Source: a virus. Taken from it: 64,000 nt of DNA. Position numbers and translations under genes: made by a program. Shown here in pieces: positions 25,517 to 64,000 of the stretch. The DNA lies in the IMG/VR virus record IMGVR_UViG_3300032241_002083, positions 25,717-89,716 of that record. One strand, 5' to 3'. Position 1 is the first letter of the stretch, and each line of letters begins with the position of its first letter. The notes under the pieces are model-generated. The model saw only the letters and a list, made by a program, of their open reading frames with translations, did not search any database and had not been told where the DNA came from.

Positions 25517-26690
25517 ATTTGTTGAGATAGAAGTAAAATCCTCAAGAATTATAGGTGAATTAAAAAAAATAGATTTATATGTAAAAATTGGTGAAATAAT
25601 ACAATTGGATATAAATAAATTATGGAAAAATTCGAACATAATGATTAATGTTAAATGCGATGTTTGTGATTTAAAAAAATCTATTTCTTATGCTTCTTAT
25701 AATAAAAATTATTTTAAGCATAAAATATATTGCTGTTCTAATAAATGTGCTGTTATTAAAAATAATTTAACTAAATTAGAAAAATATGGAGATAAAAATT
25801 ATACAAATCCAAATAAAGCAAAAGAAACAAAAGAAATAAAATATGGAAATAAAAATTATATTAACCATCAAAAAATAAAACAAACTAATATTAAAAGATA
25901 TGGAGATGAAAATTTTAATAATCGTGATAAATATAAAGAAACTTGTTTAGAAAAATATGGAGTTACTAATTCTTTTTTAATAGAAGAAGTTAAAGAAAAA
26001 ATAAAAAAAACAAATATTAAAAAATATGGAATTGAAGATGCAAGAAAATCAGAAATTATAAAGGATAAAAGAATTAAAACATTAATAGAAAAATATGGAG
26101 TTGATAATTATTCTAAAACAGAAGAATTTAAAGATAAAGTTATAAGAACATCCATTGAAAAATACGGAGTTGATAGTTTTAATAAATCACAAATAATGAA
26201 AGATAAAAAAATCGAATCTATGCTTAATAAATTTGGATATATATCAAATTCAATGACATATGAAAGTAAAGAGAAATTAAAAAAAACTAATTTAGAAAGA
26301 TATGGAGTTGATTATCCAATGCAGGTTGAAGAATTTTATTTAAAACAGCAAAAAAATTCATTTAAAATTAATTATTTAAATGGTATTCCATATCAAAGTT
26401 CTTATGAGAAACATTTTTTAGAATTTATGGAGCAAAATGGACTATTTAATGAAATAAAAAGAGGAAAATTTATTAAATATGAATATGAGAATAAAATAAA
26501 AATACATTATCCAGATTTTTTTATCGAAAAATTTAATTTAATAATTGAAATTAAATCAAGTTATTATTATAATAAATTTTTTGAAAAGAATAAAGCAAAA
26601 ATGGAAAAATGTATATCAGAAGGTTATAATTATTTATTTATTATAAATAAAAATTATGAAGTTTTAAAATACATATTATTTTATGGTTGA
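25503..26690 (+). mobile_element. Homing-type endonuclease with xxEKYGVxN repeats and PD-(D/E)XK C-terminal domain
   Basis: Multiple LEKYG/IEKYGVD repeats; SSYE, HYPDF..IIEIKS. Confidence 0.7.
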
Positions 26691-39736: not shown

Positions 39737-40849
39737 TTATGCTACTGATAAATAAATCTTACGATTTGATCTTTCAATTGCTATAACTTTAACTTTTGCT
39801 GTTTGACCTTCGTTAAAAGTTTTCCCAACTTTCTCTAATTCGGAAGAGTGAATAAGACCGATAGTTTCTTCATCTAACCAAACAAGAGTTCCAAATCCTT
39901 TGTTTTCTTTAACTTTGGCATTTAAAATTTGTCCAATTTTTAAAGTGTCCCATAAAGTTTCCTTTAAAATCTGTGTTAAGATTATTTTAGAATCTTTTAT
40001 GATTTCTTTAACATAAAACTGAATTTCATAACCAGGCTGAATTTGCTTGATTTTATCTTGCCATTCTGGGTCAATATTTGTTTTATGAATCATGCCGGTT
40101 AAACACTCGTTAAATTCAACGAATACACCAAAATCAGTAGTGCCTGTAACATGTCCTGTATAAACATGTCCTAATTTTAATTCTTTAATTGCTTCTGGAA
40201 TTAAACTTTGTAGGAATTTTCTTCTACTTACGATGTAAGTTCCTTCTTCTCTTGAATAAGATTCAATCATAACTGGAAGAGATTTTCCAACAATTGATTC
40301 TGGTTCAGAGAGTTTGTTAATACCTGCCAATGTATTTGGCATAAATCCTGGTAAAATGATTGTTTCGTATTGTAACTCGACATTGTAACCAGCTGGTGTT
40401 AATTCTTTAATGAAGGCTACAATACTTTCTTCTTCTTTTAGAGCTTTAATAGTATCGTGTGCTTTTGACTCATAAAGTCCTGCAACGGTTCCTTCAATGA
40501 AGTAATTAGAATTATTGACCTTTGAAATTAGTAGGTCAATCTCATCACCGAGATTAAGTGTTTTGAAATACTTAAGTTCGCCTGTTTTATTTTCAACACG
40601 AACATAATCTTTGAAACCACCTTCAAACATAAGTGAGTCTTTGTTTTGCCCAACATATGTTAAAGTATAAACTTCTCCTTGAATTGGAACATTGACTACT
40701 AATGAATCGTAGAGTGAATCTAAAAGAGCTTTTTGAATAGCTAGTTGTTTGTCTGTTTTAACTTCAGTGTCAAAATCGAAGTTAAAATCTTGGTTTGAAG
40801 AAAAATACTTTTTTCTTTTTTCTTTGTAGATAATGGTTTTTTTACCCAT
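39737..40849 (-). CDS. rpsA: Ribosomal protein bS1-like protein (multiple S1 OB domains)
   Basis: GFMP, IVSRR, G.VTGTTDFGVFVE...GMIH, FG.LV.LDE...GLIHSSEL, RKIYLS. Confidence 0.8.
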   Translation of the reverse strand: MGKKTIIYKEKRKKYFSSNQDFNFDFDTEVKTDKQLAIQKALLDSLYDSLVVNVPIQGEVYTLTYVGQNKDSLMFEGGFKDYVRVENKTGELKYFKTLNLGDEIDLLISKVNNSNYFIEGTVAGLYESKAHDTIKALKEEESIVAFIKELTPAGYNVELQYETIILPGFMPNTLAGINKLSEPESIVGKSLPVMIESYSREEGTYIVSRRKFLQSLIPEAIKELKLGHVYTGHVTGTTDFGVFVEFNECLTGMIHKTNIDPEWQDKIKQIQPGYEIQFYVKEIIKDSKIILTQILKETLWDTLKIGQILNAKVKENKGFGTLVWLDEETIGLIHSSELEKVGKTFNEGQTAKVKVIAIERSNRKIYLSVA

Positions 40850-52310: not shown

Positions 52311-52922
52311 ATGGCAGAAAACACAACTACCCAACAAGAATTATTATTTAAACAACGCACTGGCGAATCCTTCGCTTATTTTTACGAAAAATTTTATCCA
52401 AGATTAGTTTACAACATTAATGGAATTACAAAAGATGAATATCTTGCAGAAGATGTAGCTACCGAAGCTTTCATCAAAGCATTTGAAAAAATTGATCAAT
52501 ATGAAAAAGGCAAAGCACAATTTTCAACTTGGCTATTTACAATAGCAAGACATTTGGCTCTTCAAGAAATCAAACAAGGTAAAAAGACCATGTCAATGGA
52601 TACTCAATTAGACGAAGAAGGCACAACTATGAAAGATTTTATTCAGGAAGAAACTAATAATGATGAATTCTTACACATTTTAAATAAAAAGAAAGCAGAA
52701 ATAATAAAGGATGAAATACCTAAATTAAAAGAACCATTACAAACGGTAATTCGTATGAGAGAAATTGATAAAATGCAATATAAAGATATTGCTGATGCAC
52801 TTGACCGCAATTTATCAACGGTTAAAAGTCAAATTAAAAAAGCAAGAGAAGTTTTGATTAAAGCCGTGGAGAAAAAATTCAAAGATCTAGAAGATAACTT
52901 AGAATTAGAAGAATTTTTTTAA
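52311..52922 (+). CDS. ECF-type RNA polymerase sigma factor
   Basis: Region 2 AEDVATEAFIKAF...FSTWLFTIARH; region 4 Y.DIA..L....STVKSQI..AR. Confidence 0.9.
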   Translation: MAENTTTQQELLFKQRTGESFAYFYEKFYPRLVYNINGITKDEYLAEDVATEAFIKAFEKIDQYEKGKAQFSTWLFTIARHLALQEIKQGKKTMSMDTQLDEEGTTMKDFIQEETNNDEFLHILNKKKAEIIKDEIPKLKEPLQTVIRMREIDKMQYKDIADALDRNLSTVKSQIKKAREVLIKAVEKKFKDLEDNLELEEFF

Positions 52923-53814: not shown

Positions 53815-54135
53815 ATGATTTTAGAAGTAAATTCGAATAATTTTGATGAAATAACCAAAGATGGTTTGGTATTAGTAAAACTTGAAGCAGTTTGGTGTGG
53901 GCCGTGTCGAGCTCTTACTCCCATCTATGAAGACGTGGCTAAAGATTTGATGGTGCAAAATTCGCCAGTAAAATTGACAAAAATGGATGTAGATAAAAAC
54001 AGAGATAAGGCTGTTGAATTGGGTGTAAGTTCTATACCAACTATTTTGGTTTATAAAAATGGTGAAGTAGTTGATAAAGCTATTGGTATGTTGCAAAAAA
54101 TTAAATTACAAGAATTGATTGAGAAAAATTCTTAA
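53815..54135 (+). CDS. trxA: Thioredoxin
   Basis: WCGPC active site, SIPT. Confidence 0.95.
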   Translation: MILEVNSNNFDEITKDGLVLVKLEAVWCGPCRALTPIYEDVAKDLMVQNSPVKLTKMDVDKNRDKAVELGVSSIPTILVYKNGEVVDKAIGMLQKIKLQELIEKNS

Positions 54136-54145
54136 ACTTTTTGGA

Positions 54146-54571
54146 ATGAAATTTGATAATAAAAAAGCCTATTTTGACTACTCTATTATAGAAGAGTATG
54201 TTGCCGGAGTTAAATTATTAGGTTCAGAAGTAAAGTCTTTAAGAGAAGGCAATGCTTCTATTAAAGATACATATGTATATTTGAATAATGGTGAGGTTTT
54301 TGTTAAAGGTATGTATATTGCTAAACATAAAGAATCATCATGGATGAATCATGAAGAAGTTCGTGATAGAAAATTACTCTTAACTAAAAAACAAATTAGA
54401 GATTTACAAAAAGATTTAAAGGTAAATGGCATAACAATCGTTCCTTTGATGATGTATTTGGTAAATGGTAAATTTAAATTAAAAATTGCTGTTGCCAAAG
54501 GCAAAAAAACCTTTGATAAGAAAAAAAGCATTAAGGAGCGCGAAATGCTTATTAATTCTATGCGAGATTAA
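54146..54571 (+). CDS. smpB: SsrA-binding protein
   Basis: NKKAYFDY, AG..L.GSEVKSLR, RKLLL, GKK.FDK. Confidence 0.95.
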   Translation: MKFDNKKAYFDYSIIEEYVAGVKLLGSEVKSLREGNASIKDTYVYLNNGEVFVKGMYIAKHKESSWMNHEEVRDRKLLLTKKQIRDLQKDLKVNGITIVPLMMYLVNGKFKLKIAVAKGKKTFDKKKSIKEREMLINSMRD

Positions 54572-55709: not shown

Positions 55710-55868
55710 ATGTATTTGAAAACATTTGAAATTACGGAAGACGATTTTAATAAATTGTCTGAAACAGACCTTAATAAAGTCTTAATCACTTTAGATTGTG
55801 GTTATGAATATAATGAAAGCAATAGACAAAAATTAATGAAAATTATAAAAAATATTAAACATGTATAA
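55710..55868 (+). CDS. 52-aa hypothetical protein
   Basis: MYLKTFEITEDDFNKLS...; follows TATATTTG -7 element, overlaps leuS start. Confidence 0.5.
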   Translation: MYLKTFEITEDDFNKLSETDLNKVLITLDCGYEYNESNRQKLMKIIKNIKHV

Positions 55869-57138
55869 CAACGAAGATTTGTATATTACGGTAATGTTTC
55901 CATACCCATCCTCAGATGGGTTGCATATAGGACATGTTTATAATTATGCTATAATGGATAGTTGGTGTCGATATAAAAGACACATCGGAAATTCTGTTTA
56001 TCAGCCTTTCGGCTTTGATGCGTTCGGCTTGCCCGCTGAAAACTATGCCAAAAAAGTAGGACGAGATCCAAAAGATGTAACTTATGAAAACATAGAAAAG
56101 TTCCGTATTCAAATGAAACAAATGAATACAGAATTCAAAGAAGTATTGATTACCTCTGACCCTTCTTATCAAAAATGGACTCAATGGTTGTTTTTGAAAT
56201 TGAAAGAGCATGGTTTGGCTTATAAAAAAGATGGTGAAGTAAATTACTGTCCTTCTTGTGAAACTGTATTGGCTCGTGAACAAGTAAAAGATGGTAAATG
56301 TGATAGATGTAGTTCTGTCATTGAAATGAAAGTTATGAATCAGTGGTATTTTAAAATTACTGATTATAAACAACGTTTGATTGATAATTTAGATAAAATT
56401 GATTATCCTACTTCTACTATTAATGCACAACGCATGTGGTTGGAAAACTTGCATGATTGGTGCGTAAGTCGTCAAAGAAAATGGGGTTGTCCAATTCCAA
56501 TTGAAGGTGAAGAAGATACAATGGATACTTTTGTTTGTTCCTCTTATTATTTAATCCGTTATTGTGACCCTGATAACGAAAATGAATTGTGTTCCAAAGA
56601 TAAATACAAACAAGTTGATATTTATGTTGGCGGCAATGAACATGCGACAGGACATTTAATATTCGCCCGTTTTATAAATATGTTTTTGTATGATATTGGC
56701 GTGGTTCCTTGTGAGGAACCCGTAAAGAGGTTCTTTAGTCAGGGAGTTATATTATATAATGGCGAAAAAATGTCAAAATCAAAAGGAAATACTATAAACC
56801 CAGACGATTATGATCAGGACGAATTACGCTTTTTTCTTATGCAACTTGGTCCGTATTCTGACGGTGGCTCCTGGAATGATAAAGCGATAAATGGAATCAA
56901 ACGATTTATCAATAGATTTAAAGAATGGATGAGCAGAGAGGGCGAAGATGTAATAGATGTAGAAACATTTAGAATAAAGATATTTGAACTAACAGAAAAA
57001 ATGAAATTTAATAAAGTGGTATCTGAATTTTTTATTCTTTTGAATTCTAATAGAACGAAAAATCTTAAACCAGAAATCAAGGAAGAATTAATCTCTATAT
57101 TGGAGATATATATGCCTGGATTGAGAGATAAGTTATAA
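55861..57138 (+). CDS. leuS: Minimal leucyl-tRNA synthetase (425 aa; lacks CP1 editing and C-terminal domains)
   Basis: MFPYPS..LHIGH, GFDAFGLPAENYA, Zn knuckle CPSC..CDRC, DWCVSRQR.WG.PIP, MDTF..SS, GG.EHA..HL..ARF, KMSKSKGN. Confidence 0.85.
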   Translation: MYNNEDLYITVMFPYPSSDGLHIGHVYNYAIMDSWCRYKRHIGNSVYQPFGFDAFGLPAENYAKKVGRDPKDVTYENIEKFRIQMKQMNTEFKEVLITSDPSYQKWTQWLFLKLKEHGLAYKKDGEVNYCPSCETVLAREQVKDGKCDRCSSVIEMKVMNQWYFKITDYKQRLIDNLDKIDYPTSTINAQRMWLENLHDWCVSRQRKWGCPIPIEGEEDTMDTFVCSSYYLIRYCDPDNENELCSKDKYKQVDIYVGGNEHATGHLIFARFINMFLYDIGVVPCEEPVKRFFSQGVILYNGEKMSKSKGNTINPDDYDQDELRFFLMQLGPYSDGGSWNDKAINGIKRFINRFKEWMSREGEDVIDVETFRIKIFELTEKMKFNKVVSEFFILLNSNRTKNLKPEIKEELISILEIYMPGLRDKL

Positions 57139-57148
57139 TAAGAAAGTC

Positions 57149-57190
57149 ATAGGAGCAAAATATTCAAAATCCTCATTATAAAATTTATTA
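57149..57190 (+). repeat. 42-nt exact copy of 45625-45666
   Basis: ATAGGAGCAAAATATTCAAAATCCTCATTATAAAATTTATTA at both loci. Confidence 0.9.
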
Positions 57191-57257
57191 CCTAAAAAAT
57201 ATAATAATTTTAATGTTTTTTATAAAGTAATAGGCGTTATTAGTCCAAGAAAATAGT

Positions 57258-57464
57258 ATGAGATTAGATAGAATGCGATGGTTTGGTCCATCAAGACCCG
57301 AAGATAAGCCAGGTGTAGAAGGTTGGCGACACAGCAGATTATTCAAAGTAGTTAGGCATCAAGGTGCTAAAGCTATTCGTGCTATAAGCAAAAAATTATG
57401 TAAGAAATCTATATCAGATAATGATATAGATTTTCCTACGTCTAAATATATAAGAAATCACTAA
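57258..57464 (+). CDS. Basic hypothetical protein
   Basis: ORF track. Confidence 0.5.
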   Translation: MRLDRMRWFGPSRPEDKPGVEGWRHSRLFKVVRHQGAKAIRAISKKLCKKSISDNDIDFPTSKYIRNH

Positions 57465-57515
57465 TGGATATAAAATTAATAGGTATTTGGAATGATTCAG
57501 ATTCAATTTTAGAAG

Positions 57516-57692
57516 ATGGCGAATAAAAATAAAAAACCACGAGATATAATTAAAGAAACTGAAGAATATTTAGTTTTCCTTAAAAAGAGATTAGATTCAG
57601 CCAATTATAAAGCCAATGTTTCCAAAGAAGAATATGATGAAACAAAGGCTAAATATGATAAGGCTAAATTAAGATTAAAACTATTAAAGTAA
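57516..57692 (+). CDS. 58-aa coiled-coil protein resembling the ValRS C-terminal tRNA-binding arm
   Basis: IIKETEEYLVFLKKRLDSANYKANVSKEEYDETKAKYDKAKLRLKLLK; below the ORF-track size cutoff. Confidence 0.45.
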   Translation: MANKNKKPRDIIKETEEYLVFLKKRLDSANYKANVSKEEYDETKAKYDKAKLRLKLLK

Positions 57693-57746
57693 TAATAAGT
57701 AAGGTTTATGAGTTTTGTATAAAAAATAAAATTTGTGGATTTAAAA

Positions 57747-57932
57747 ATGACTGGTAAAGCAATCATGAAATTCAACGGTGGGCTTGGCTCTATCATTTGT
57801 TCCAAATGTGGAGTTATAATTAAAACAGGTAAAAATTTTACTGACGAAGAGTGGAAAGCAATTAGATGAGAATTGAAATTAAAGGCACAATTTTGTGATT
57901 CTTGTAAAGCAAAATTAAGAGAAGAAAAATAA
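57747..57932 (+). pseudogene. Small Zn-finger gene with in-frame TGA (57867-57869)
   Basis: KFNGGLGSIICSKC...KAIR*ELKLKAQFCDSC: the two CxxC pairs flank the stop. Confidence 0.65.
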
Positions 57933-57977
57933 ATTAAAAATAAAAGCAACCTTAAAGGTTGCTTTTATTTTTAATTT
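57931..57977. terminator. Bidirectional terminator
   Basis: AAATTAAAAATAAAAGCAACCT-TAA-AGGTTGCTTTTATTTTTAATTT. Confidence 0.8.
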
Positions 57978-58288
57978 TAAATTTTATTAATTTCTGTTTT
58001 AACTTCGCTTTCTACATTAGAAGCTTCTGTTTTAACTTCGCTTTCTACATTAGAAGCTTCTGTTTTAACTTCACTTTCGTCTTCTTCTCCTAAATTTAAC
58101 ATATACCTTGTGTAATCTGCTAAACATTTAGTTTCTTCTGAAACGTGTGTTTTTATACTATTAATTTCATTATTAAAATGATTTTTAATATTGTTTTCTA
58201 AATTATCAAATTTAGATGAGATCCCTGAGTTTCTACCAACGAAAAAACCAACTATCAAAGACCCAATTACTAATAAAATTGTAATCAT
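57977..58288 (-). CDS. Membrane-anchored protein with 33-nt (ESEVKTEASNV) tandem repeats
   Basis: N-terminal TM helix; ~2.6 copies of an 11-aa repeat. Confidence 0.65.
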   Translation of the reverse strand: MITILLVIGSLIVGFFVGRNSGISSKFDNLENNIKNHFNNEINSIKTHVSEETKCLADYTRYMLNLGEEDESEVKTEASNVESEVKTEASNVESEVKTEINKI

Positions 58289-58452
58289 AATTTTTATTTT
58301 TTATATAATAAAAAATTTAAAAAGTTTAAAAGATTTGAAATAAATTTTGCTCGTTCAAAACTTTTTCGTAATTTTGTATAAAATAACAAAACAGCAAAAA
58401 AGCACTTTTAGAATATAATATATATAATTATACAAAAAAAGTCAAAATAAAT

Positions 58453-58483
58453 TTTGCGATTACAAAACTTTATTGTATCTTTG
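58453..58483 (+). promoter_or_regulatory. Bacteroidota-type promoter of the tRNA region
   Basis: TTTG (58453)-N19-TATCTTTG (58476). Confidence 0.7.
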
Positions 58484-58598
58484 CTGTATAATAAAAAAGA
58501 TTAAAAATACTTAGTAAGACAGGGTAAATATCTGGACAAGTTTTTAAAAGAAAACAGGATAAATATCTGGACAGTCTGAAAAGTTTTAAAATATAAAA

Positions 58599-58670
58599 TG
58601 CGGGATAGAGCAGTGGTAGCTCGTAAGGCTCATAACCTTAAGGTCATTGGTTCGAATCCAGTTCCTGCAT
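58599..58670 (+). tRNA. tRNA-Met (CAT), initiator-like body
   Basis: TGCGGGA/TCCTGCA acceptor; TAAGG-CTCATAA-CCTTA; GGTTCGAATCC. Confidence 0.9.
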
Positions 58671-58700
58671 CAAATAATAACAATTTTAAAAAATCATAGT

Positions 58701-58793
58701 ATGAAACATTTTAGCTCACATAAACATTCGTTTAAATTCTGGTTTAGTAACCAGGGTTCGGTAGAGTTATGTTTCAATAACAAGACTTCTTAA
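58701..58793 (+). CDS. Leader peptide 1 (MKHFSSHKHSFKFWFSNQGSVELCFNNKTS)
   Basis: Codons 2-16 use only K/H/F/S/W; sits within attenuator hairpins. Confidence 0.75.
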   Translation: MKHFSSHKHSFKFWFSNQGSVELCFNNKTS

Positions 58794-58850
58794 AAAGAGT
58801 TATTGTAAGAAACTGAAAAAGCCGAACTTTTATAAAAGTTCGGCTTTTTT
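58702..58850 (+). promoter_or_regulatory. Transcription attenuator 1 (protector, antiterminator, terminator)
   Basis: 58702-58717 pairs with 58764-58776; GGGTTCGGT (58754-62) pairs with GCCGAACTT (58821-29); terminator AAAAAGCCGAACTTTT-AT-AAAAGTTCGGCTTTTTT (58816-58850). Confidence 0.8.
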
Positions 58851-58854
58851 ATAT

Positions 58855-58941
58855 GGTGATCGTAGCCGGTAATGGATGCCGACCTGCCTGTGGAGCAGGA
58901 ATAATTTCGATTTAATGCGGGTTCAATTCCCGTCGATCACC
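58855..58941 (+). tRNA. tRNA-His (GTG) with G-1 and a 17-nt variable region
   Basis: G-GTGATCG/CGATCAC-C; CCTGC-CTGTGGA-GCAGG; GGTTCAATTCC. Confidence 0.9.
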
Positions 58942-58947
58942 CAAAAA

Positions 58948-59058
58948 TTAGTTGCCCAGCTTGTTCCGTCAAGGGTTATAAAACTATACATTGTTAACGG
59001 AGCCCATGATGGATACTCTACCAAAAAAGTGAGTGAGAAAAGTTGTAACAATGACTAA
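58948..59058 (+). ncRNA. Candidate structured RNA between tRNA-His and tRNA-Phe
   Basis: Nested pairings TTAGTTG/TGACTAA, CAGCTT/AAGTTG, GTTCCGT/ACGGAGC, TACTC/GAGTG; GC-richer than background. Confidence 0.4.
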
Positions 59059-59064
59059 AAATAA

Positions 59065-59136
59065 GGTGTCGTAACATAGAGGTTTATGTGTTGATCTGAA
59101 AAATCAAAAATGCTAGATCGTTACTAGCCGATACCA
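59065..59136 (+). tRNA. tRNA-Phe (GAA)
   Basis: GGTGTCG/CGATACC; TTGAT-CTGAAAA-ATCAA; T arm GCTAG-ATCGTTA-CTAGC. Confidence 0.85.
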
Positions 59137-59197
59137 CAAAAATAACTTCAAAGGAAGACGAACCTATTTTATATATAAGTAAATAACAAATATAAAA

Positions 59198-60079
59198 ATG
59201 GGTGCGAAATTAAAAGAATGGACAGAAAAAGAAAAGGAAATACTTTTTAAATATTTCCCAAGTATGGGGTGTAATTATTGTTCGAACTTAATAGGAAGAA
59301 CAAAAAGAGCGTGCCAAGAAATGGCAAAAAAACTAAAATTAGAGAGAGATTTAAATAAGTATGAAGATAAGGAAAAATTAGAGGAATTAGTTAAAAGTTG
59401 TAAAACATATACAGATTGTGTAATAAAATTGGGATTATCTCCCAGATGTTCTGGTAATTTTCAAACTATTAAAAAATATATTATGTTGCATAATATAGAT
59501 ATTTCACATTTTGAAAATGGATTTCAAATAGGTAACAACCCTCAGAATAAGAAAGAATTATCTGAAGTTTTAGTAGAAAACTCTTTTTTTAGTAGATCTC
59601 ATTTGAAAGAGAGATTATATAAAGAGGGATTAAAAAAGAAAGAATGTGAGATATGTGGAATGGGAGAAGATTGGTTTAATGGAACAAAAATAGTTCATAT
59701 TTTAGATCATATAAATGGAGAACCTTATGACAATCGTCTTGAAAATTTAAGAATTGTTTGTCCAAATTGTAATTCAACATTAGAAACAAATTGTGTTGGG
59801 AATAAAGTTAATAAAATATATGATTCTAAAAAAGATGAATATAAAAGTGAAAAAACACATAAAAAATGTAATTGTGGTAAAATAATCTTGAAAGAAAGTA
59901 AATTTTGTTTAGAATGTAATGCCAAAAGTAAAAGAAAAGTTATTAATAGACCAACGTTTGAAGAATTGGTTAAGTTAATAGAAGAAAATGGTAATACTGG
60001 AACAGGTAAAATATACGGCGTTAGCGAATCTGTCATAAGAAAATGGTTAAAACAATATAAAAATAAAGCATTAATATAA
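59198..60079 (+). mobile_element. HNH homing endonuclease inserted in the tRNA operon
   Basis: CEICG, LDHING...DNRLENLRIVCPNC, C-terminal HTH. Confidence 0.85.
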
Positions 60080-60081
60080 AT

Positions 60082-60154
60082 ACGGGTATGGTGAAAATGG
60101 CTATCATTTTTGACTCCAAATCAAAAGTTCCGGATTCGAGTTCTGGTGCCCGTG
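60082..60154 (+). tRNA. tRNA-Trp (CCA)
   Basis: ACGGGTA/TGCCCGT; TTTGA-CTCCAAA-TCAAA; CCGGA-TTCGAGT-TCTGG. Confidence 0.9.
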
Positions 60155-60161
60155 CTAAATT

Positions 60162-60244
60162 GGAAGATGCGTTGCATGGAGCAAAAACAGTTTTGAAAAC
60201 TGTCGTATCGTTAATTCGGTAGGGGTCGGTTCCTCCATCTTCCT
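60162..60244 (+). tRNA. tRNA-Ser (TGA), divergent D/T arms
   Basis: GGAAGAT/ATCTTCC; ACAGT-TTTGAAA-ACTGT; long variable region. Confidence 0.7.
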
Positions 60245-60264
60245 CAATATTAAAAAAAATTAAG

Positions 60265-60300
60265 ATGAAACAGATAAAACAGAAACAGAAACAGGTATAA
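60265..60300 (+). CDS. Candidate leader peptide 3 (MKQIKQKQKQV)
   Basis: Four AAA and four CAG codons; followed by a long hairpin and tRNA-Lys(TTT). Confidence 0.45.
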   Translation: MKQIKQKQKQV

Positions 60301-60341
60301 AGTAGGTACAATCAATTGATATGTAGCCTATTTATATAAAT

Positions 60342-60417
60342 GCGCTATTAACTCAATTTGGTTTAGAGTACCAAGCTTTTAACTTGGGAGTTGTAGGTTC
60401 GAGTCCTACATGGCGCA
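60342..60417 (+). tRNA. tRNA-Lys (TTT)
   Basis: GCGCTAT/ATGGCGC; CCAAG-CTTTTAA-CTTGG; GGTTCGAGTCC. Confidence 0.92.
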
Positions 60418-60462
60418 CAAAAATTTTTAGTCAGGTGTTCTACTATATTTTATATATAAAAT

Positions 60463-61074
60463 ATGGGAAAATTTACTAAAAATTATTTAAAAAAATATGA
60501 TTGGGTACAAATACAAAATTATTATAATGAGGGGAATTCATGTAGAGATGTAATCAAAAAATTTGATATATCAAGTGCCGGATTGTCTTTTGCGGTAAAA
60601 TCTGGGGTTCTAAGAACTAGGACAAAAAGTGATTCAAATATATTAGGGCATAAAAAATTTCCACAAAAACATTCTGATTCAACCAAAAAAAAGATAAGTG
60701 AAAGTAGAATTAAATATTTGAAAGATAATCCAGATAAAGTTCCGTATTTATTAAACCATAGTAGTAGGGAATCTTATCCTGAAAAATATTTTTGGGAAAT
60801 ATTTGAAAAAGAAAATTTAAATATTAAAAGATATCTTCAAGTAGGATTATATGAATTAGATTTTTATAACCTTGATAAAAAAATAGATATTGAAATAGAC
60901 GGTGAGCAACATTTCACAGATAAAAAAATAGTTGAGTCTGATAAAAGAAGAAACAGTTATTTAATTGATAATGGATGGACAATAATTAGAATTAGATGGT
61001 CGAATTATCAAAAATTAAATTTTGAAGAAAAGAATAAATATATTGAAGAATTAAAGAAAAAATTGGTTTCGTAG
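60463..61074 (+). mobile_element. DUF559/Vsr-like endonuclease with NUMOD3 motif
   Basis: KHSDSTKKKISES, S.PE, YELDF, IEIDGEQH, D..R...L...GW.IIRI. Confidence 0.8.
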
Positions 61075-61138
61075 CTTAAATGGATAAAGCTCCCGACTCT
61101 TAATCGGAGGACTGTGATATCGTACCTCACCGAAACCA
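61065..61138 (+). tRNA. tRNA-Lys (CTT)
   Basis: GGTTTCG/CGAAACC; CCCGA-CTCTTAA-TCGGG; T loop ATCGTAC; 5' end overlaps the upstream ORF end. Confidence 0.85.
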
Positions 61139-61151
61139 CAAAAATAAAAAT

Positions 61152-61394
61152 ATGGAAAATTATAAATCAATAATAGAGCAACATAAAGTTCAAATAGGAA
61201 ATTATATTATTTCTTCAAAAGACCAATTAGAAGAATACCGAAAAAAGTATTTAAGCGCAAATGGTGTTGTAAAACAAGTTTATAATCAATTAAAACAAGT
61301 TCCTGCGGAAAACAGGAAGCAAGCAGGAGAATTGTTAAGAGAATTAAAATACTTAGCAGAAAATTATTACGAAAAAAACCAAAACAAGACATAA
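61152..61394 (+). CDS. Stand-alone PheRS alpha-subunit N-terminal coiled-coil-like protein
   Basis: LEEYRKKYLSANG.V...Y..LK.VPAENRKQAG..L.ELK matches the PheS N-terminal LE..R..YL.KKG.....LP.EER...G..IN.LK pattern. Confidence 0.7.
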   Translation: MENYKSIIEQHKVQIGNYIISSKDQLEEYRKKYLSANGVVKQVYNQLKQVPAENRKQAGELLRELKYLAENYYEKNQNKT

Positions 61395-61415
61395 AAATTA
61401 TAATATATATATAGT

Positions 61416-61475
61416 ATGAAAATAACATTAACATCGTCAAGTCGCAGTCCTTATAACTTCGAAATCCGAAGATGA
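61416..61475 (+). CDS. Leader peptide 2 (MKITLTSSSRSPYNFEIRR)
   Basis: TCG TCA AGT CGC AGT core plus CGA AGA; sits within attenuator hairpins. Confidence 0.75.
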   Translation: MKITLTSSSRSPYNFEIRR

Positions 61476-61532
61476 TAGTGTTATGTAGATACTTCAAAAC
61501 TCGGATTTTAAAAAAAATCCGAGTTTTTTTTT
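61422..61532 (+). promoter_or_regulatory. Transcription attenuator 2
   Basis: 61422-61435 pairs with 61471-61484 (13/14); AAATCCGA (61462-69) pairs with TCGGATTT (61501-08); terminator AAAACTCGGATTTT-AAAA-AAAATCCGAGTTTTTTTTT (61496-61532). Confidence 0.8.
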
Positions 61533-61534
61533 AT

Positions 61535-61623
61535 GGTGGGTTACTCAAGAGGATTAAAGAGGCTTGTTTGCTAAACAAGTAGGGCAGTAAAATGTTGCGT
61601 GGGTTCGAATCCCACATCCACCG
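61535..61623 (+). tRNA. tRNA-Ser (GCT)
   Basis: GGTGGGT/ATCCACC-G; CTTGT-TTGCTAA-ACAAG; long variable arm; GGTTCGAATCC. Confidence 0.92.
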
Positions 61624-61629
61624 CTGAAT

Positions 61630-61858
61630 ATCCAGATAGTTTAATTGGAAAGAACGATCCTAAAACGGCAGGATTACTCTGTGAGGGATTTTGACTTGCT
61701 ACCAAAGGCATTCAAATTATGGTTGTATTTCAACCGTTGTAAGACCAATGGGTGTGAGGATTAATTGTATGGTTGCGGATGCACTGATATAAAATCAGGA
61801 AGCGAGTTTTCCAAGATTAATTGCAAAATCTATACGGGTTCGAGCCCCGTTCTGGATA
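61630..61858 (+). ncRNA. tRNA-shell ncRNA B (229 nt) with a giant structured insert
   Basis: ATCCAGA/TCTGGAT-A acceptor; TAGTTTAATTGGAAAGAAC D arm; ACGGG-TTCGAGC-CCCGT T arm; insert closed by GGATTTTG/CAAAATCT. Confidence 0.75.
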
Positions 61859-61866
61859 CAAAAAAT

Positions 61867-61953
61867 GGCTCCATAGTTTAATGGATTTAAAACGCCCCGC
61901 TACGAACGGGGAGACAGATATGTTTTATGAGGGTTCGAATCCTTCTGGAGTCA
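61867..61953 (+). tRNA. tRNA-Arg (ACG) with a long variable arm
   Basis: GGCTCCA/TGGAGTC; CCCCG-CTACGAA-CGGGG; variable AGACA-GATA-TGTTT. Confidence 0.9.
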
Positions 61954-61959
61954 CTATAA

Positions 61960-62048
61960 GGAAAGATGGCAGAGCGGTTGAATGCTTCGGTCTTGAAAAC
62001 CGATGACTGGCGTAAGTCGGTCCGTGGGTTCGAAACCCACTCTTTCCT
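61960..62048 (+). tRNA. tRNA-Ser (TGA)
   Basis: GGAAAGA/TCTTTCC; TCGGT-CTTGAAA-ACCGA; long variable arm. Confidence 0.92.
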
Positions 62049-62054
62049 CTTACT

Positions 62055-62143
62055 GGAGAGTATAGGAGGTGACAGGTGGTCCCCGCTCGTTTGGAAAACG
62101 AGAACCCATTAGGTTGGGCGAGTTTCGATTATTCTGCTCTCCT
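62055..62143 (+). tRNA. tRNA-Ser (GGA), divergent
   Basis: GGAGAGT/GCTCTCC; CTCGT-TTGGAAA-ACGAG; TTCGATT loop. Confidence 0.75.
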
Positions 62144-62323
62144 CTTTAAAATTAATTTAAAAATGAAAGTTAAACAACAAATTAGAGAAAAATTCCGGAA
62201 TTTACTGCTGAAAATCTTTATAAAAAGATTAAATCCAGTTATGAAATAGCATATAAAAAATCTGAAAGACTTTAACAAAATAAAAATATGTTAAAGTCAA
62301 TTTAATTTTGTATATTTGTATTT

Positions 62324-62671
62324 ATGAGTAAAGTAAAATCTTATCAAATAATGTCTAAAATAAAACTGGTTCGCAAAGTTTTAGATTATGGTTTTCGAAA
62401 AGCTTTGGAATATTCTGATTTTGGTGAGGAAGAAGAATATACAAAAAGTCTAGAAACTAAGACGAAAGAAGAATTGAGAGAAATTATAAAGGAACTTAAA
62501 GACGAATTAAATGCTGGTTCTGTTAGAAACCAAAACCCAGGTTTAAAGTTTTGTATAGGTAAATGTCAAAGAGAGTATATTCCAAAAGATGGTAATTTAG
62601 AAGTTTATTGTCCGTCATGTGATAGGACAATAGCGGTTAGACCTATTAAAAATGATTATAAGGATATATGA
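62324..62671 (+). CDS. Hypothetical protein with C-terminal Zn ribbon
   Basis: CIGKC...CPSC; preceded by TATATTTG. Confidence 0.6.
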   Translation: MSKVKSYQIMSKIKLVRKVLDYGFRKALEYSDFGEEEEYTKSLETKTKEELREIIKELKDELNAGSVRNQNPGLKFCIGKCQREYIPKDGNLEVYCPSCDRTIAVRPIKNDYKDI

Positions 62672-62825
62672 TTAAAAGAATAAGAAATTGGACTGATAAG
62701 TCTTTTGAAAATAGGCAATATTTTATAGCACTATGGAACTATGCCGAGATATTTTATTTTTATTGTATTAAGTTTAACTCTTTTATCTATATGGATAGGA
62801 TTTAAAATTGGAATGAAATTTTTAT

Positions 62826-63056
62826 ATGGGAAAGAAAAATAAAGAGTTTGATATAGAAAGGTCAGAATATGACGATAAGGTTGAGGAAATCCGCAAAAAG
62901 AAAAGAAAGTTGCGAGATATCCAAGAACCTGGTCTTGTTAAAAAGATTAAAAAGGATCTTAAAGCCGAGCAACGTGCGGCAAAGCGTTCTAATAAGAATG
63001 CACTTCGTAATTATTTAAAAGACGAAATAAATAAATATGATGATGGAGAAGAATAG
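62826..63056 (+). CDS. Basic coiled-coil hypothetical protein
   Basis: ORF track. Confidence 0.6.
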   Translation: MGKKNKEFDIERSEYDDKVEEIRKKKRKLRDIQEPGLVKKIKKDLKAEQRAAKRSNKNALRNYLKDEINKYDDGEE

Positions 63057-63294
63057 AATGCAATTTATTTCTAAAAAAGAATTAAAATTAGGTGAAATTT
63101 GTTATATAGAAAAAAACAAGGTTTATTTTTTAGAAAAAAATGAATCATGGAAAGACAAAGGCAGACCTTCTACTCATTTAATTTATGATGAAGAAGATGC
63201 ATTAGTATTTACTCTTAATTCTGAATTATTAGAAGAATACTTTATGAGTGTGGCAGAGTATCGTGATACTCAAATAAATTCAATTTTAGATTAA
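63037..63294 (+). CDS. Hypothetical protein with EYRDTQINSILD tag
   Basis: Motif family. Confidence 0.65.
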   Translation: MMMEKNRMQFISKKELKLGEICYIEKNKVYFLEKNESWKDKGRPSTHLIYDEEDALVFTLNSELLEEYFMSVAEYRDTQINSILD

Positions 63295-63296
63295 TT

Positions 63297-63536
63297 ATGG
63301 GTAGTTTAACATCGATGATAAATGATTTATATGATGATTATGTTTATTTTTGTAAAACTCTAAATGTAGAATCAGTCGGAATGCATGATAATAAAATATC
63401 ATTTTTAATACATGAATATCAATTATTGGAGAAAATAGGATTTAAGACAAAAGAAGATTTTTATGAAGTTTTAAGAAAGGCGGAAAATCGTGATAAAAAA
63501 ATAAAAGAGATTTTAGATGATAAAATGCATATGTAG
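63297..63536 (+). CDS. Hypothetical protein with ENRDKKIKEILDD tag
   Basis: Motif family. Confidence 0.65.
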   Translation: MGSLTSMINDLYDDYVYFCKTLNVESVGMHDNKISFLIHEYQLLEKIGFKTKEDFYEVLRKAENRDKKIKEILDDKMHM

Positions 63537-63759
63537 AGAATCATTATCTTTTTTAAAAAAAGATTCAATTTATTATGTAGATATTGCTTTATCTAAAACA
63601 AATTATCCTGATGAATTATTTACGGATTATTTAGAAGTTTTTGATTCAGAAGAAAAATATCTTGGTGGGTTTTGGATAGATAAAGATAGGTATTTTATTG
63701 ATATATCTGAATTTAGGGATGAAAGAATAAATCAAATTTTAGATGAGAAAGGTGATTAA
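63517..63759 (+). CDS. Hypothetical protein with EFRDERINQILDE tag
   Basis: Motif family. Confidence 0.65.
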   Translation: MIKCICRESLSFLKKDSIYYVDIALSKTNYPDELFTDYLEVFDSEEKYLGGFWIDKDRYFIDISEFRDERINQILDEKGD

Positions 63760-64000
63760 TAAATTGAAGGTAGTTATCATTAAAGATATTTATTTTGAAT
63801 TTGATATAAATAGTTTAAGATTGGCATCTGGTTATATTTATGATTTAGAAATTTGTGAATCAGGCACTTATACATTCTTAATTAGTGACCCCAAAATCCT
63901 TCCGGTTAATGCTACAAATACATGTTACTTCTATAAAGCGGAATGTGAAAGTATTGAAATTTCAAAATATTTTTGCACATTAGCCGAATGGCGAGAATTA
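63752..64000 (+). CDS. Hypothetical protein (3'-truncated) ending YFCTLAEWREL
   Basis: GTG start overlapping upstream stop; frame open to window end; start of the family motif. Confidence 0.6.
   Translation, partial: MINKLKVVIIKDIYFEFDINSLRLASGYIYDLEICESGTYTFLISDPKILPVNATNTCYFYKAECESIEISKYFCTLAEWREL

Follow-up and report, generated by a model that had tools for sequence, protein, structure and literature searches.

Phage transfer RNA (tRNA) genes are usually treated as constitutively expressed cargo. The locus described here raises the question of whether such genes can be switched by the ribosome, according to how fast it reads particular codons. The locus lies in a 64-kilobase (kb) stretch of 64,000 nucleotides (nt) of DNA from a giant lake phage, hereafter the window, which is the final part of the 89.7-kb IMG/VR virus record IMGVR_UViG_3300032241_002083 (positions 25,717 to 89,716; CheckV completeness 17%) and has a GC content of about 26%. 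The tRNA genes of the window are all found on the plus strand within 58.6–62.1 kb, and two blocks of them are each preceded by a short open reading frame (ORF), a set of alternative RNA pairings and a predicted intrinsic terminator, an arrangement that we call a gate (Table 1). We argue that the gates are probably ribosome-mediated, or leader-peptide, transcription attenuators that have blocks of tRNA genes as their output and exert negative feedback on tRNA supply. The argument starts from what sequence and computation establish, namely the ORFs, the predicted terminators, the alternative pairings with their conservation and covariation, and the match between leader codons and downstream tRNAs.

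Structure of the two gates

The regulatory run of leader 1, codons 2–16 (58704-58748), consists of Lys, His, Phe, Ser and Trp only, and the block behind it contains ARAGORN-called tRNAs for His, Phe, Trp, Lys(TTT) and Lys(CTT). No other run of this composition in the six frames of the window is as long as these 15 codons: the runner-up has 9, and 30 dinucleotide shuffles reach 8–10. Leader 1 ranks first among the 375 short ATG ORFs of the window when each is judged by its best 15-codon window. Leader 2 carries the run Ser-Ser-Ser-Arg-Ser (SSSRS) at 61434-61448, ranks third of the 375 for Ser plus Arg content, and precedes ARAGORN-called tRNAs for Ser(GCT), Arg(ACG), Ser(TGA) and Ser(GGA). The stop codons of both leaders lie about 20–26 nt ahead of the terminator stem. 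The U-run of terminator 1 ends 4–5 nt short of tRNA-His (58856) and the nine-T run of terminator 2 ends 2 nt short of tRNA-Ser(GCT) (61535).

An earlier reading of this DNA from its letters alone (the sequence-only reading) had proposed a trp/his/pheST-type architecture here, with a leader 1 confined to five amino acids, an SSSRS core in leader 2 and strong U-tailed terminators abutting the first tRNA, and we recover each of these features, including the short ORF and the alternative pairings that define the type. It had also placed a Ser(TGA) tRNA in the first block. The gene concerned (60162-60243) is called by neither ARAGORN nor Infernal; it aligns with a called Ser(TGA) gene at the equal position in two relatives and retains a UGA anticodon and a cloverleaf with a degenerate T-loop, and may represent either a tRNA gene in decay or an unusual tRNA. 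Two further details have to be revised. The string ATAGT-ATG, with which each operon was said to begin, occurs exactly twice in the window (58696 and 61411), as claimed, and is not a conserved part of the gates, ATAGT being kept before the ATG in 2/6 related contigs. Nor does operon 1 begin at its leader, since two promoter motifs and tRNA-Met(CAT) lie upstream of gate 1.

Gates in related genomes

Relatives were found with the ORF for the N-terminal domain of phenylalanyl-tRNA synthetase (PheRS) that separates block 1 from leader 2, which led to a 190-kb IMG/VR contig (G001), and with a back-translated leader 1 pattern, which led to G001 again and to a 159-kb contig (G002); the same type of pattern retrieved three further metagenome contigs. 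A protein search of viral contigs with the class I aminoacyl-tRNA synthetase found no relatives. The closest phage DNA matches in GenBank are short stretches of two ‘uncultured phage’ genomes, LR756501.1 (735 kb) and LR756504.1 (636 kb), which the main text of Al-Shayeb et al. (2020; PMC7162821) places in the Mahaphage clade with Bacteroidetes as predicted hosts. The host of the window phage is probably a member of the Bacteroidota.

To count as a terminator, a stem had to be perfect, have at least 6 base pairs (bp), 3 or more of them GC, and lead into a U-run. Where several ORFs lay near a terminator we took the longest whose stop lies 15–50 nt before the stem, a rule that was fixed before counting, and the tRNA sets are ARAGORN calls, uncalled tRNA-like genes being excluded. 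Throughout the fetched regions of G001 and G002, every multi-tRNA cluster has a hairpin 7–30 nt before its first called tRNA (114 nt in one case), and ahead of each hairpin is a short ATG ORF that stops 19–28 nt before the stem, which gives 14 gates. An equivalent build is present at 11 sites of LR756501.1 and LR756504.1. With the two gates of the window the sample comes to 27 leaders from five genomes, all with an ATG start and an in-frame stop 19–48 nt ahead of the stem, and the leaders are unannotated in public records, published genomes included. Run through identical scripts, the control genome Lak-C1 (MK250029.1; 25% GC, same broad clade) has a terminator at most 30 nt upstream in 0/25 of its called tRNAs and no matching leader.

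Leader codons and downstream tRNAs

Every leader was scored against every tRNA cluster of its own genome, with raw fractions and with background-corrected z-scores, and the outcome of the permutations is the same for both. The true pairing of leaders and clusters is the single best permutation in each relative (1/5040 in G001, G002 and LR756504.1; 1/24 in LR756501.1), and for 22 of the 25 leaders in these four relatives their own cluster is the row maximum. The three exceptions are Asp or Pro/Asp leaders, in which 6/28, 4/30 and 3/34 codons match; two of the three are richer in Gln, whose block follows. For the Pro/Asp leader of G002 an internal ATG was taken because the first ATG falls within the promoter motif, and the permutation result is unchanged with the first ATG. 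The sequence-only reading had suggested looking for leader codons that co-vary with downstream anticodons in related huge phages, and 25 further gates in four genomes now bear this out.

In the leaders the matching codons are grouped in a single contiguous stretch near the middle. Five Gln codons, for example, precede three tRNA-Gln genes; a block of Ile, Met and Arg codons (9/10) precedes Arg(TCT), Ile and Met; Leu, Ser and Cys codons (10/10) stand before a Leu-Leu-Ser-Cys-Ser-Ser-Leu-Leu block; and Ala, Gly, Pro, Arg, Thr and Val codons (10/10) stand before an Arg/Thr/Val/Ala/Gly/Pro block. The division of tRNAs into clusters differs from genome to genome, and the leaders have thus followed their clusters. 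Of the 27 leaders, 18 have AAA as their second codon, as against AAA (Lys) in 8/44 long ORFs and 33/375 random short ORFs of the window; these counts include orthologues and are hence not independent, and the excess would fit selection for translation at the step of initiation.

Conservation and covariation

The first 65 nt of leader 1 are nearly invariant over six contigs while the flanks diverge, and the peptide of codons 1–22 is identical in five of the six, the few changes in these codons being three synonymous ones and two replacements. The spacer ahead of leader 1 has insertions and deletions, and the first tRNA after it varies in sequence. The outer stem of terminator 1 covaries or compensates among the six contigs, around an invariant core, CCGAAC, that pairs with both partners. 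The local hairpin and the antiterminator of gate 1 are both kept in 6/6 contigs, with changes from G-C to G-U or A-U.

Leader 2 was compared in four contigs, where the Ser/Arg run is kept and other codons vary; the run has 6–7 codons in G001, G002 and contig L018 and five in the window itself. A compensatory G-C to A-U change, which affects both alternative pairings, distinguishes the window and G002 from G001 and L018. Both the conservation of the leaders and the covariation in their alternative structures, which the sequence-only reading had named as tests, are therefore present at gates 1 and 2.

Alternative pairings and ribosome position

In 19 of the 27 leaders the best upstream partner of the terminator 5′ arm beats 95% of 200 dinucleotide shuffles (mean z −2.8). 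For leader 1 the antiterminator has a z of −3.6 and none of the 200 shuffles is equally strong, and for leader 2 the values are z −2.6 and p 0.015. The partner, which we call region 2, always lies inside the ORF, between the regulatory block and the stop, from which it is 3–42 nt away. At gate 1 the 5′ strand of the local hairpin (58735-58744) is itself made of Lys-Phe-Trp-Phe codons.

The effect of ribosome position was modelled in 16 leaders by folding the transcript up to the terminator loop with the ribosome footprint masked codon by codon. The folds predict a paired terminator 5′ arm as long as the aminoacyl (A) site has not passed the regulatory codons, and a fall in pairing just after these codons in nearly all 16 leaders. 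The predicted value drops from 0.9 to 0.3 at codons 16–17 of leader 1; for leader 2 it is 0.8–0.9 over codons 1–12, 0.3 at codon 13 and 0.0–0.1 at codons 14–16. In the long leaders region 2 lies about 30–40 nt before the stop, where a terminating ribosome would sit in the antiterminator loop, off region 2; a ribosome inside this loop would presumably block the helix.

The gates thus have four parts of a leader-peptide attenuator: a leader ORF, a block of cognate codons, a predicted intrinsic terminator, and an antiterminator placed for control by ribosome position. Their targets are not the usual amino-acid biosynthesis or synthetase genes, the gated genes being tRNAs and passenger endonuclease ORFs. 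An independent promoter between hairpin and tRNA, which the sequence-only reading had named as counter-evidence, is not indicated: the motif scan found no motif there, and the 2–9 nt between U-run and tRNA leave no room for one.

Proposed mechanism

Two tandem promoter-like motifs lie ahead of the whole tRNA array, and an equivalent pair, judged by eye, is found ahead of tRNA-Met in G002 and in contigs L015 and L018. The consensus used for the motif scan is one that we take to be of Bacteroidetes type and was not derived with a tool; the window has 14 matches to it, as against 5.9 ± 2.6 in shuffles. Ahead of leader 2 the scan saw no promoter motif in this window, and the relatives carry promoter-type sequence there (judged by eye). 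The tRNA-Met(CAT) gene stands ahead of leader 1, outside the gate, in 6/6 contigs, a placement that would make sense if this tRNA serves the leader's own initiation.

We infer a mechanism that depends on translation of the leader, on coupling of transcription and translation in the host, on termination at the hairpin and on read-through when the ribosome stalls. Transcription would enter from the promoters ahead of tRNA-Met, and in this window gate 2 would probably be entered through read-through from block 1. A ribosome would translate the leader, and if the relevant aminoacyl-tRNAs were scarce it would stall at the central codons, those for Lys, His, Phe, Trp and Ser in leader 1 and for Ser and Arg in leader 2. 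The stalled ribosome would leave region 2 free, which would pair with the terminator 5′ arm as soon as the latter is made; no terminator would then form and RNA polymerase would proceed into the tRNA genes. With fast decoding the ribosome would cover region 2 and reach the stop 21–26 nt before the stem, so that the terminator could form and the tRNA genes would remain silent. Each gate would act as a negative-feedback controller of supply, because its output is the tRNAs that read the codons it senses, and each amino-acid group would have separate feedback, with tRNAs made until the codons are read fast enough.

As a tentative extension, huge phages, including the largest known (735 kb), may run their tRNA supply through a paralogous family of codon-programmable sensors of ribosome speed that covers nearly the whole code, acting as homeostats which also restore tRNAs that the host has depleted or cleaved. 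Leaders of different amino-acid groups share similar Gly/Val-rich ends, which encode the G-rich region 2, at many loci. This similarity suggests either that the gates are paralogues diversified through their regulatory codons or that they share a common RNA constraint.

Weighing the attenuator reading

Several observations weigh against attenuation as described above. Eight of the 27 leaders have an antiterminator not above the shuffles, among them two orthologues of leader 2 (c2, p 0.40; d2, p 0.15). The alternative pairings are present as the sequence-only reading had it, and their mutual exclusion is less strict than it proposed: equilibrium folds without a ribosome still form the antiterminator (P 0.74 for leader 1 and 0.68 for leader 2), and for this reason the untranslated state may be ON, unlike that of trp. 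At gate 1 the local hairpin of regions 1 and 2 is also compatible with a shortened antiterminator. The terminators of the LR genomes stand 9–283 nt ahead of the first called tRNA, and one of the five fetched tRNA regions of LR756501.1 (L023), which was left out of the gate counts, is without a terminator before its first tRNA by our rule. Isolated tRNAs of G001, for Gly-TCC and with a CTA anticodon, are ungated, as are the tRNA-Met genes ahead of gate 1 in G001 and G002.

Other points concern the codon evidence. The AGC and AGT codons of leader 1 are decoded by Ser(GCT), which is behind gate 2, and the Ser(UGA)-like gene behind gate 1 is a degenerate one. SSSRS on its own is not unusual, with 7 such runs in the window and 0–6 in shuffles, and the Asp leaders (4/30 and 3/34 codons) match their clusters poorly. 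Because the genomes are related, the 27 gates are not 27 independent events. Finally, the invariance of leader 1 extends to synonymous sites, so that selection on the peptide and on the RNA are inseparable within the leader 1 family.

The gates may serve homeostasis, timing or counter-defence. That the same attenuator was selected chiefly for counter-defence, with the phage replacing tRNAs that host anticodon nucleases have cleaved, seems to us unlikely. A codon-specific stall sensor would be expected to react to cleavage as to any shortage; Lys, the target of PrrC and PARIS, the nucleases that the sequence-only reading had named, is among the amino acids sensed by leader 1; and genes with a role in translation (SmpB, an S1-domain protein and a class I aminoacyl-tRNA synthetase) are plentiful nearby. 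General supply control is the better fit, because the gates of the relatives serve tRNAs for nearly all amino acids and thus go beyond known nuclease targets. A scan of ten neighbours found no RNA-repair or anti-nuclease gene, and no sequence feature speaks to tRNA cleavage.

A different sensed quantity may also be considered, in which the gates would respond to amino-acid supply or tRNA charging, not to tRNA amount, and would tune tRNA and synthetase genes to starvation in the manner of pheM-pheST. It is established for trp, his and pheST attenuation that a stalled ribosome cannot distinguish a missing from an uncharged tRNA. In addition, a seryl-tRNA synthetase gene is located within block 1 of G001, behind a leader with Ser codons, and the PheRS N-domain ORF is found in the window. 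Most gated genes are tRNAs, however, and starvation feedback would not close, because making more tRNA leaves amino-acid starvation unrelieved; we therefore consider charging control quite doubtful.

Could the gates be RNA-level elements only, that is, ordinary terminators, insulators, or processing or stability elements, in which the short ORFs are untranslated and conserved for RNA structure? The conservation of leader 1 is one of nucleotides and extends to synonymous sites, and the Gly/Val codons that recur near ORF ends are explained by the need of region 2 to mimic the G-rich 3′ arm. RNA structure alone leaves unexplained why leaders are written in the amino acids of their own block (best of 5040, three times), why an ATG and an in-frame stop 19–48 nt before the stem are present in 27/27 leaders, and why AAA is the second codon in 18/27, which makes this explanation very improbable. 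Chance, in which terminators merely close upstream transcription units and short ORFs are common in 26% GC DNA (7 SSSRS-like runs and 375 short ATG ORFs in the window), is hardly credible given the ranks of 1/375 and 3/375, the permutations, the conservation, the antiterminator excess and the negative result with Lak-C1.

Relation to known regulatory systems

Attenuation by leader peptides is textbook control for amino-acid operons, as in thrL, ilvGMEDA, trpL, hisL, pheL and leuL. The multivalent enterobacterial leaders such as thrL (Thr/Ile) and that of ilvGMEDA (Ile/Leu/Val) resemble the phage gates in having a short ORF with a codon block for more than one amino acid, an antiterminator hairpin as alternative to the terminator hairpin, an intrinsic terminator ahead of the genes under control, and an outcome decided by ribosome position (the ilvL leader is mentioned in a passage of PMC5179076). 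They differ in that their output is biosynthetic enzymes, whereas here tRNA genes are the predicted output and the loop would close on the tRNA pool. Region 2 is at the stop in the enterobacterial leaders but here often lies deep in the ORF, as far as 42 nt ahead of the stop, and the phage gates appear to form a family of paralogues that covers most amino acids, with no sequence or Rfam similarity to the enterobacterial leaders. The sole Rfam match to an amino-acid leader, Thr_leader, scores 24.1 bits where the threshold is 55 (E 0.36); it covers the palindromic terminator on the minus strand and was rejected.

The leader peptide pheM of Escherichia coli pheST-ihfA (annotated in NC_000913.3) comes close in another respect, as it attenuates a gene of the translation apparatus through codons of that gene's own amino acid, but it is cellular, senses one amino acid and regulates a synthetase. 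The E. coli tRNA-Phe genes pheU and pheV were also considered as a possible attenuator-led precedent and discarded, since in K-12 each of them follows its promoter directly and neither an ORF nor a terminator intervenes. T-box riboswitches likewise place translation-supply genes under antitermination that answers the state of a specific tRNA; their specifier codon and T-box motif make direct contact with uncharged tRNA, and they use no ORF or ribosome, whereas the gates have a start, a stop and many sensed codons. A search of 57000-64000 gave no T-box match at E ≤ 1, and this identity was rejected.

The trn operon of Anabaena PCC 7120 is the only tRNA array that we found in print as induced by translational trouble, and passages of PMC8421152 and PMC10272220 describe it as an accessory array that is silent until translation is impaired. 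Its control is a promoter-level one, through direct repeats and the TrcR repressor (PMC8421152), and unlike that of the gates is not codon-specific; the words attenuat-, leader and terminator are absent from that paper. The same three words occur 0 times in the main text of Al-Shayeb et al. (2020; PMC7162821), the source of LR756501 and LR756504. The sequence-only reading knew of no attenuation of phage tRNA arrays, and our topical searches of full-text papers, main texts only, found no description of leader-peptide attenuation of tRNA genes. Judged from sequence, the mechanism is very probably attenuation, with tRNA output as the new element on a known architecture; the usual class of target genes is nothing that the mechanism itself demands.

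If true, the attenuator reading would provide a first example of a leader peptide that attenuates tRNA genes and would extend a classic regulatory principle to a new output class, the decoder molecules themselves. Codon-by-codon feedback would explain how a giant phage of 26% GC keeps its tRNA supply in step with the codons it needs read while in a foreign host, and the gates would be direct genomic evidence for transcription–translation coupling in such infections. They would constitute a natural set of sensors for individual aminoacyl-tRNA pools; being compact, modular and apparently reprogrammable by codon change, the leaders are candidate synthetic sensors of individual tRNA pools. They also offer a handle for testing the response of phage tRNAs to defences that target tRNA.

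The tRNA blocks and their neighbourhood

Table 1. Coordinates of the gates, the gated tRNA blocks and neighbouring features in the 64-kb window
Feature	Position	Strand	Remarks
S1-domain protein	39737-40849		
ECF-type sigma factor	52311-52922		
SmpB	54119-54571		
Class I aminoacyl-tRNA synthetase	55861-57138		
Tandem promoter-like motifs, two	58346-58376 and 58453-58483	+	TTTG, 17-21 nt, TAnnTTTG; ahead of whole tRNA array
tRNA-Met(CAT)	58599-58671	+	65.4 bits; upstream of gate 1, so ungated by gate 1
Leader ORF 1	58701-58793	+	30 codons plus stop
Gate 1 local hairpin (regions 1 and 2)	58735-58744 with 58749-58758	+	
Gate 1 antiterminator	58752-58763 with terminator 5′ arm 58820-58830	+	Duplex −13.1 kcal/mol
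Terminator 1 (predicted)	58816-58855	+	12-15 bp stem-loop 58816-58849, U-rich tail, just before tRNA-His
Gated block 1	58856-61139	+	
tRNA-His	58856-58942	+	ARAGORN, block 1
tRNA-Phe	59065-59137	+	ARAGORN, block 1
HNH endonuclease ORF	59198-60079	+	Block 1
tRNA-Trp	60082-60155	+	ARAGORN, block 1
Ser(UGA)-like tRNA, degenerate	60162-60243	+	Block 1; alignment to relatives, cloverleaf fold
tRNA-Lys(TTT)	60342-60418	+	ARAGORN, block 1
DUF559 ORF	60463-61074	+	Block 1; 10-nt overlap with start of tRNA-Lys(CTT)
tRNA-Lys(CTT)	61065-61139	+	ARAGORN, block 1
PheRS alpha N-terminal domain ORF, nothing else of PheRS	61152-61394	+	80 codons; PF02912, 1.1e-11; between block 1 and leader 2
Leader ORF 2	61416-61475	+	19 codons plus stop; final two codons Arg
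Gate 2 local hairpin (regions 1 and 2)	61457-61461 with 61467-61471	+	
Gate 2 antiterminator	61460-61470 with terminator 5′ arm 61500-61509	+	−10.9 kcal/mol; overlaps local hairpin
Terminator 2 (predicted)	61496-61534	+	14-bp stem 61496-61527, nine-T run
Gated block 2	61535-62144	+	
tRNA-Ser(GCT)	61535-61624	+	ARAGORN, block 2
tRNA-framed element, 242 nt	61625-61866	+	Block 2
tRNA-Arg(ACG)	61867-61954	+	ARAGORN, block 2
tRNA-Ser(TGA)	61960-62049	+	ARAGORN, block 2
tRNA-Ser(GGA)	62055-62144	+	ARAGORN, block 2

The passengers behind gate 1 are the HNH and DUF559 endonuclease ORFs and the PheRS N-domain ORF. The last of these has an 80% identical copy at the equal place in G001, where it is preceded by a full seryl-tRNA synthetase gene inside block 1. 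The two endonuclease-like ORFs lie between tRNA genes and resemble the homing endonucleases of other phage tRNA regions. The tRNA-His and tRNA-Arg(ACG) genes have a length of 87–88 nt, and their variable region carries an additional arm of about 14 nt, which is unusual for class I tRNAs of these kinds; the His genes of relatives at the tRNA-His position are of normal length and different sequence.

Block 2 includes a 242-nt element (61625-61866) that is framed like a tRNA, with a 7-bp acceptor, a 5′ D-arm and a canonical 3′ T-arm around an insert of about 170 nt. It is kept in G002 (181/251 aligned columns), where the acceptor stem shows a compensatory change; G001 has only a 3′ remnant. A group I intron was tried as the identity of the insert and rejected, as there is no Rfam match and the intron option of ARAGORN calls nothing there. 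The isolated G001 tRNA with a CTA anticodon (L008:3413-3486) is labelled Pyl by ARAGORN and is a candidate amber suppressor.

Around the array lies a translation-rich island with genes for thymidylate synthase, the S1-domain protein, a NAD-dependent DNA ligase, the ECF-type sigma factor, SmpB and the class I aminoacyl-tRNA synthetase (425 residues). A transfer-messenger RNA was not found in the window although SmpB is encoded. Between the second promoter motif and tRNA-Met there are two direct repeats of 20 nt (58519-58538 and 58554-58573), 19/20 identical and 35 nt apart; the pair recurs in contig L015 and could be an operator or a processing signal. A third ATAGTATG stands at the head of a 68-codon ORF (57253-57464), which has no Pfam or Rfam match; its first 30 codons have a GC content that is unusually high by the standard of this genome. 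On the minus strand, an ORF at 57977-58288 has a hydrophobic N-terminal segment and a tandem 11-residue repeat unit near its C-terminus, and beside it lies a bidirectional terminator at 57931-57977.

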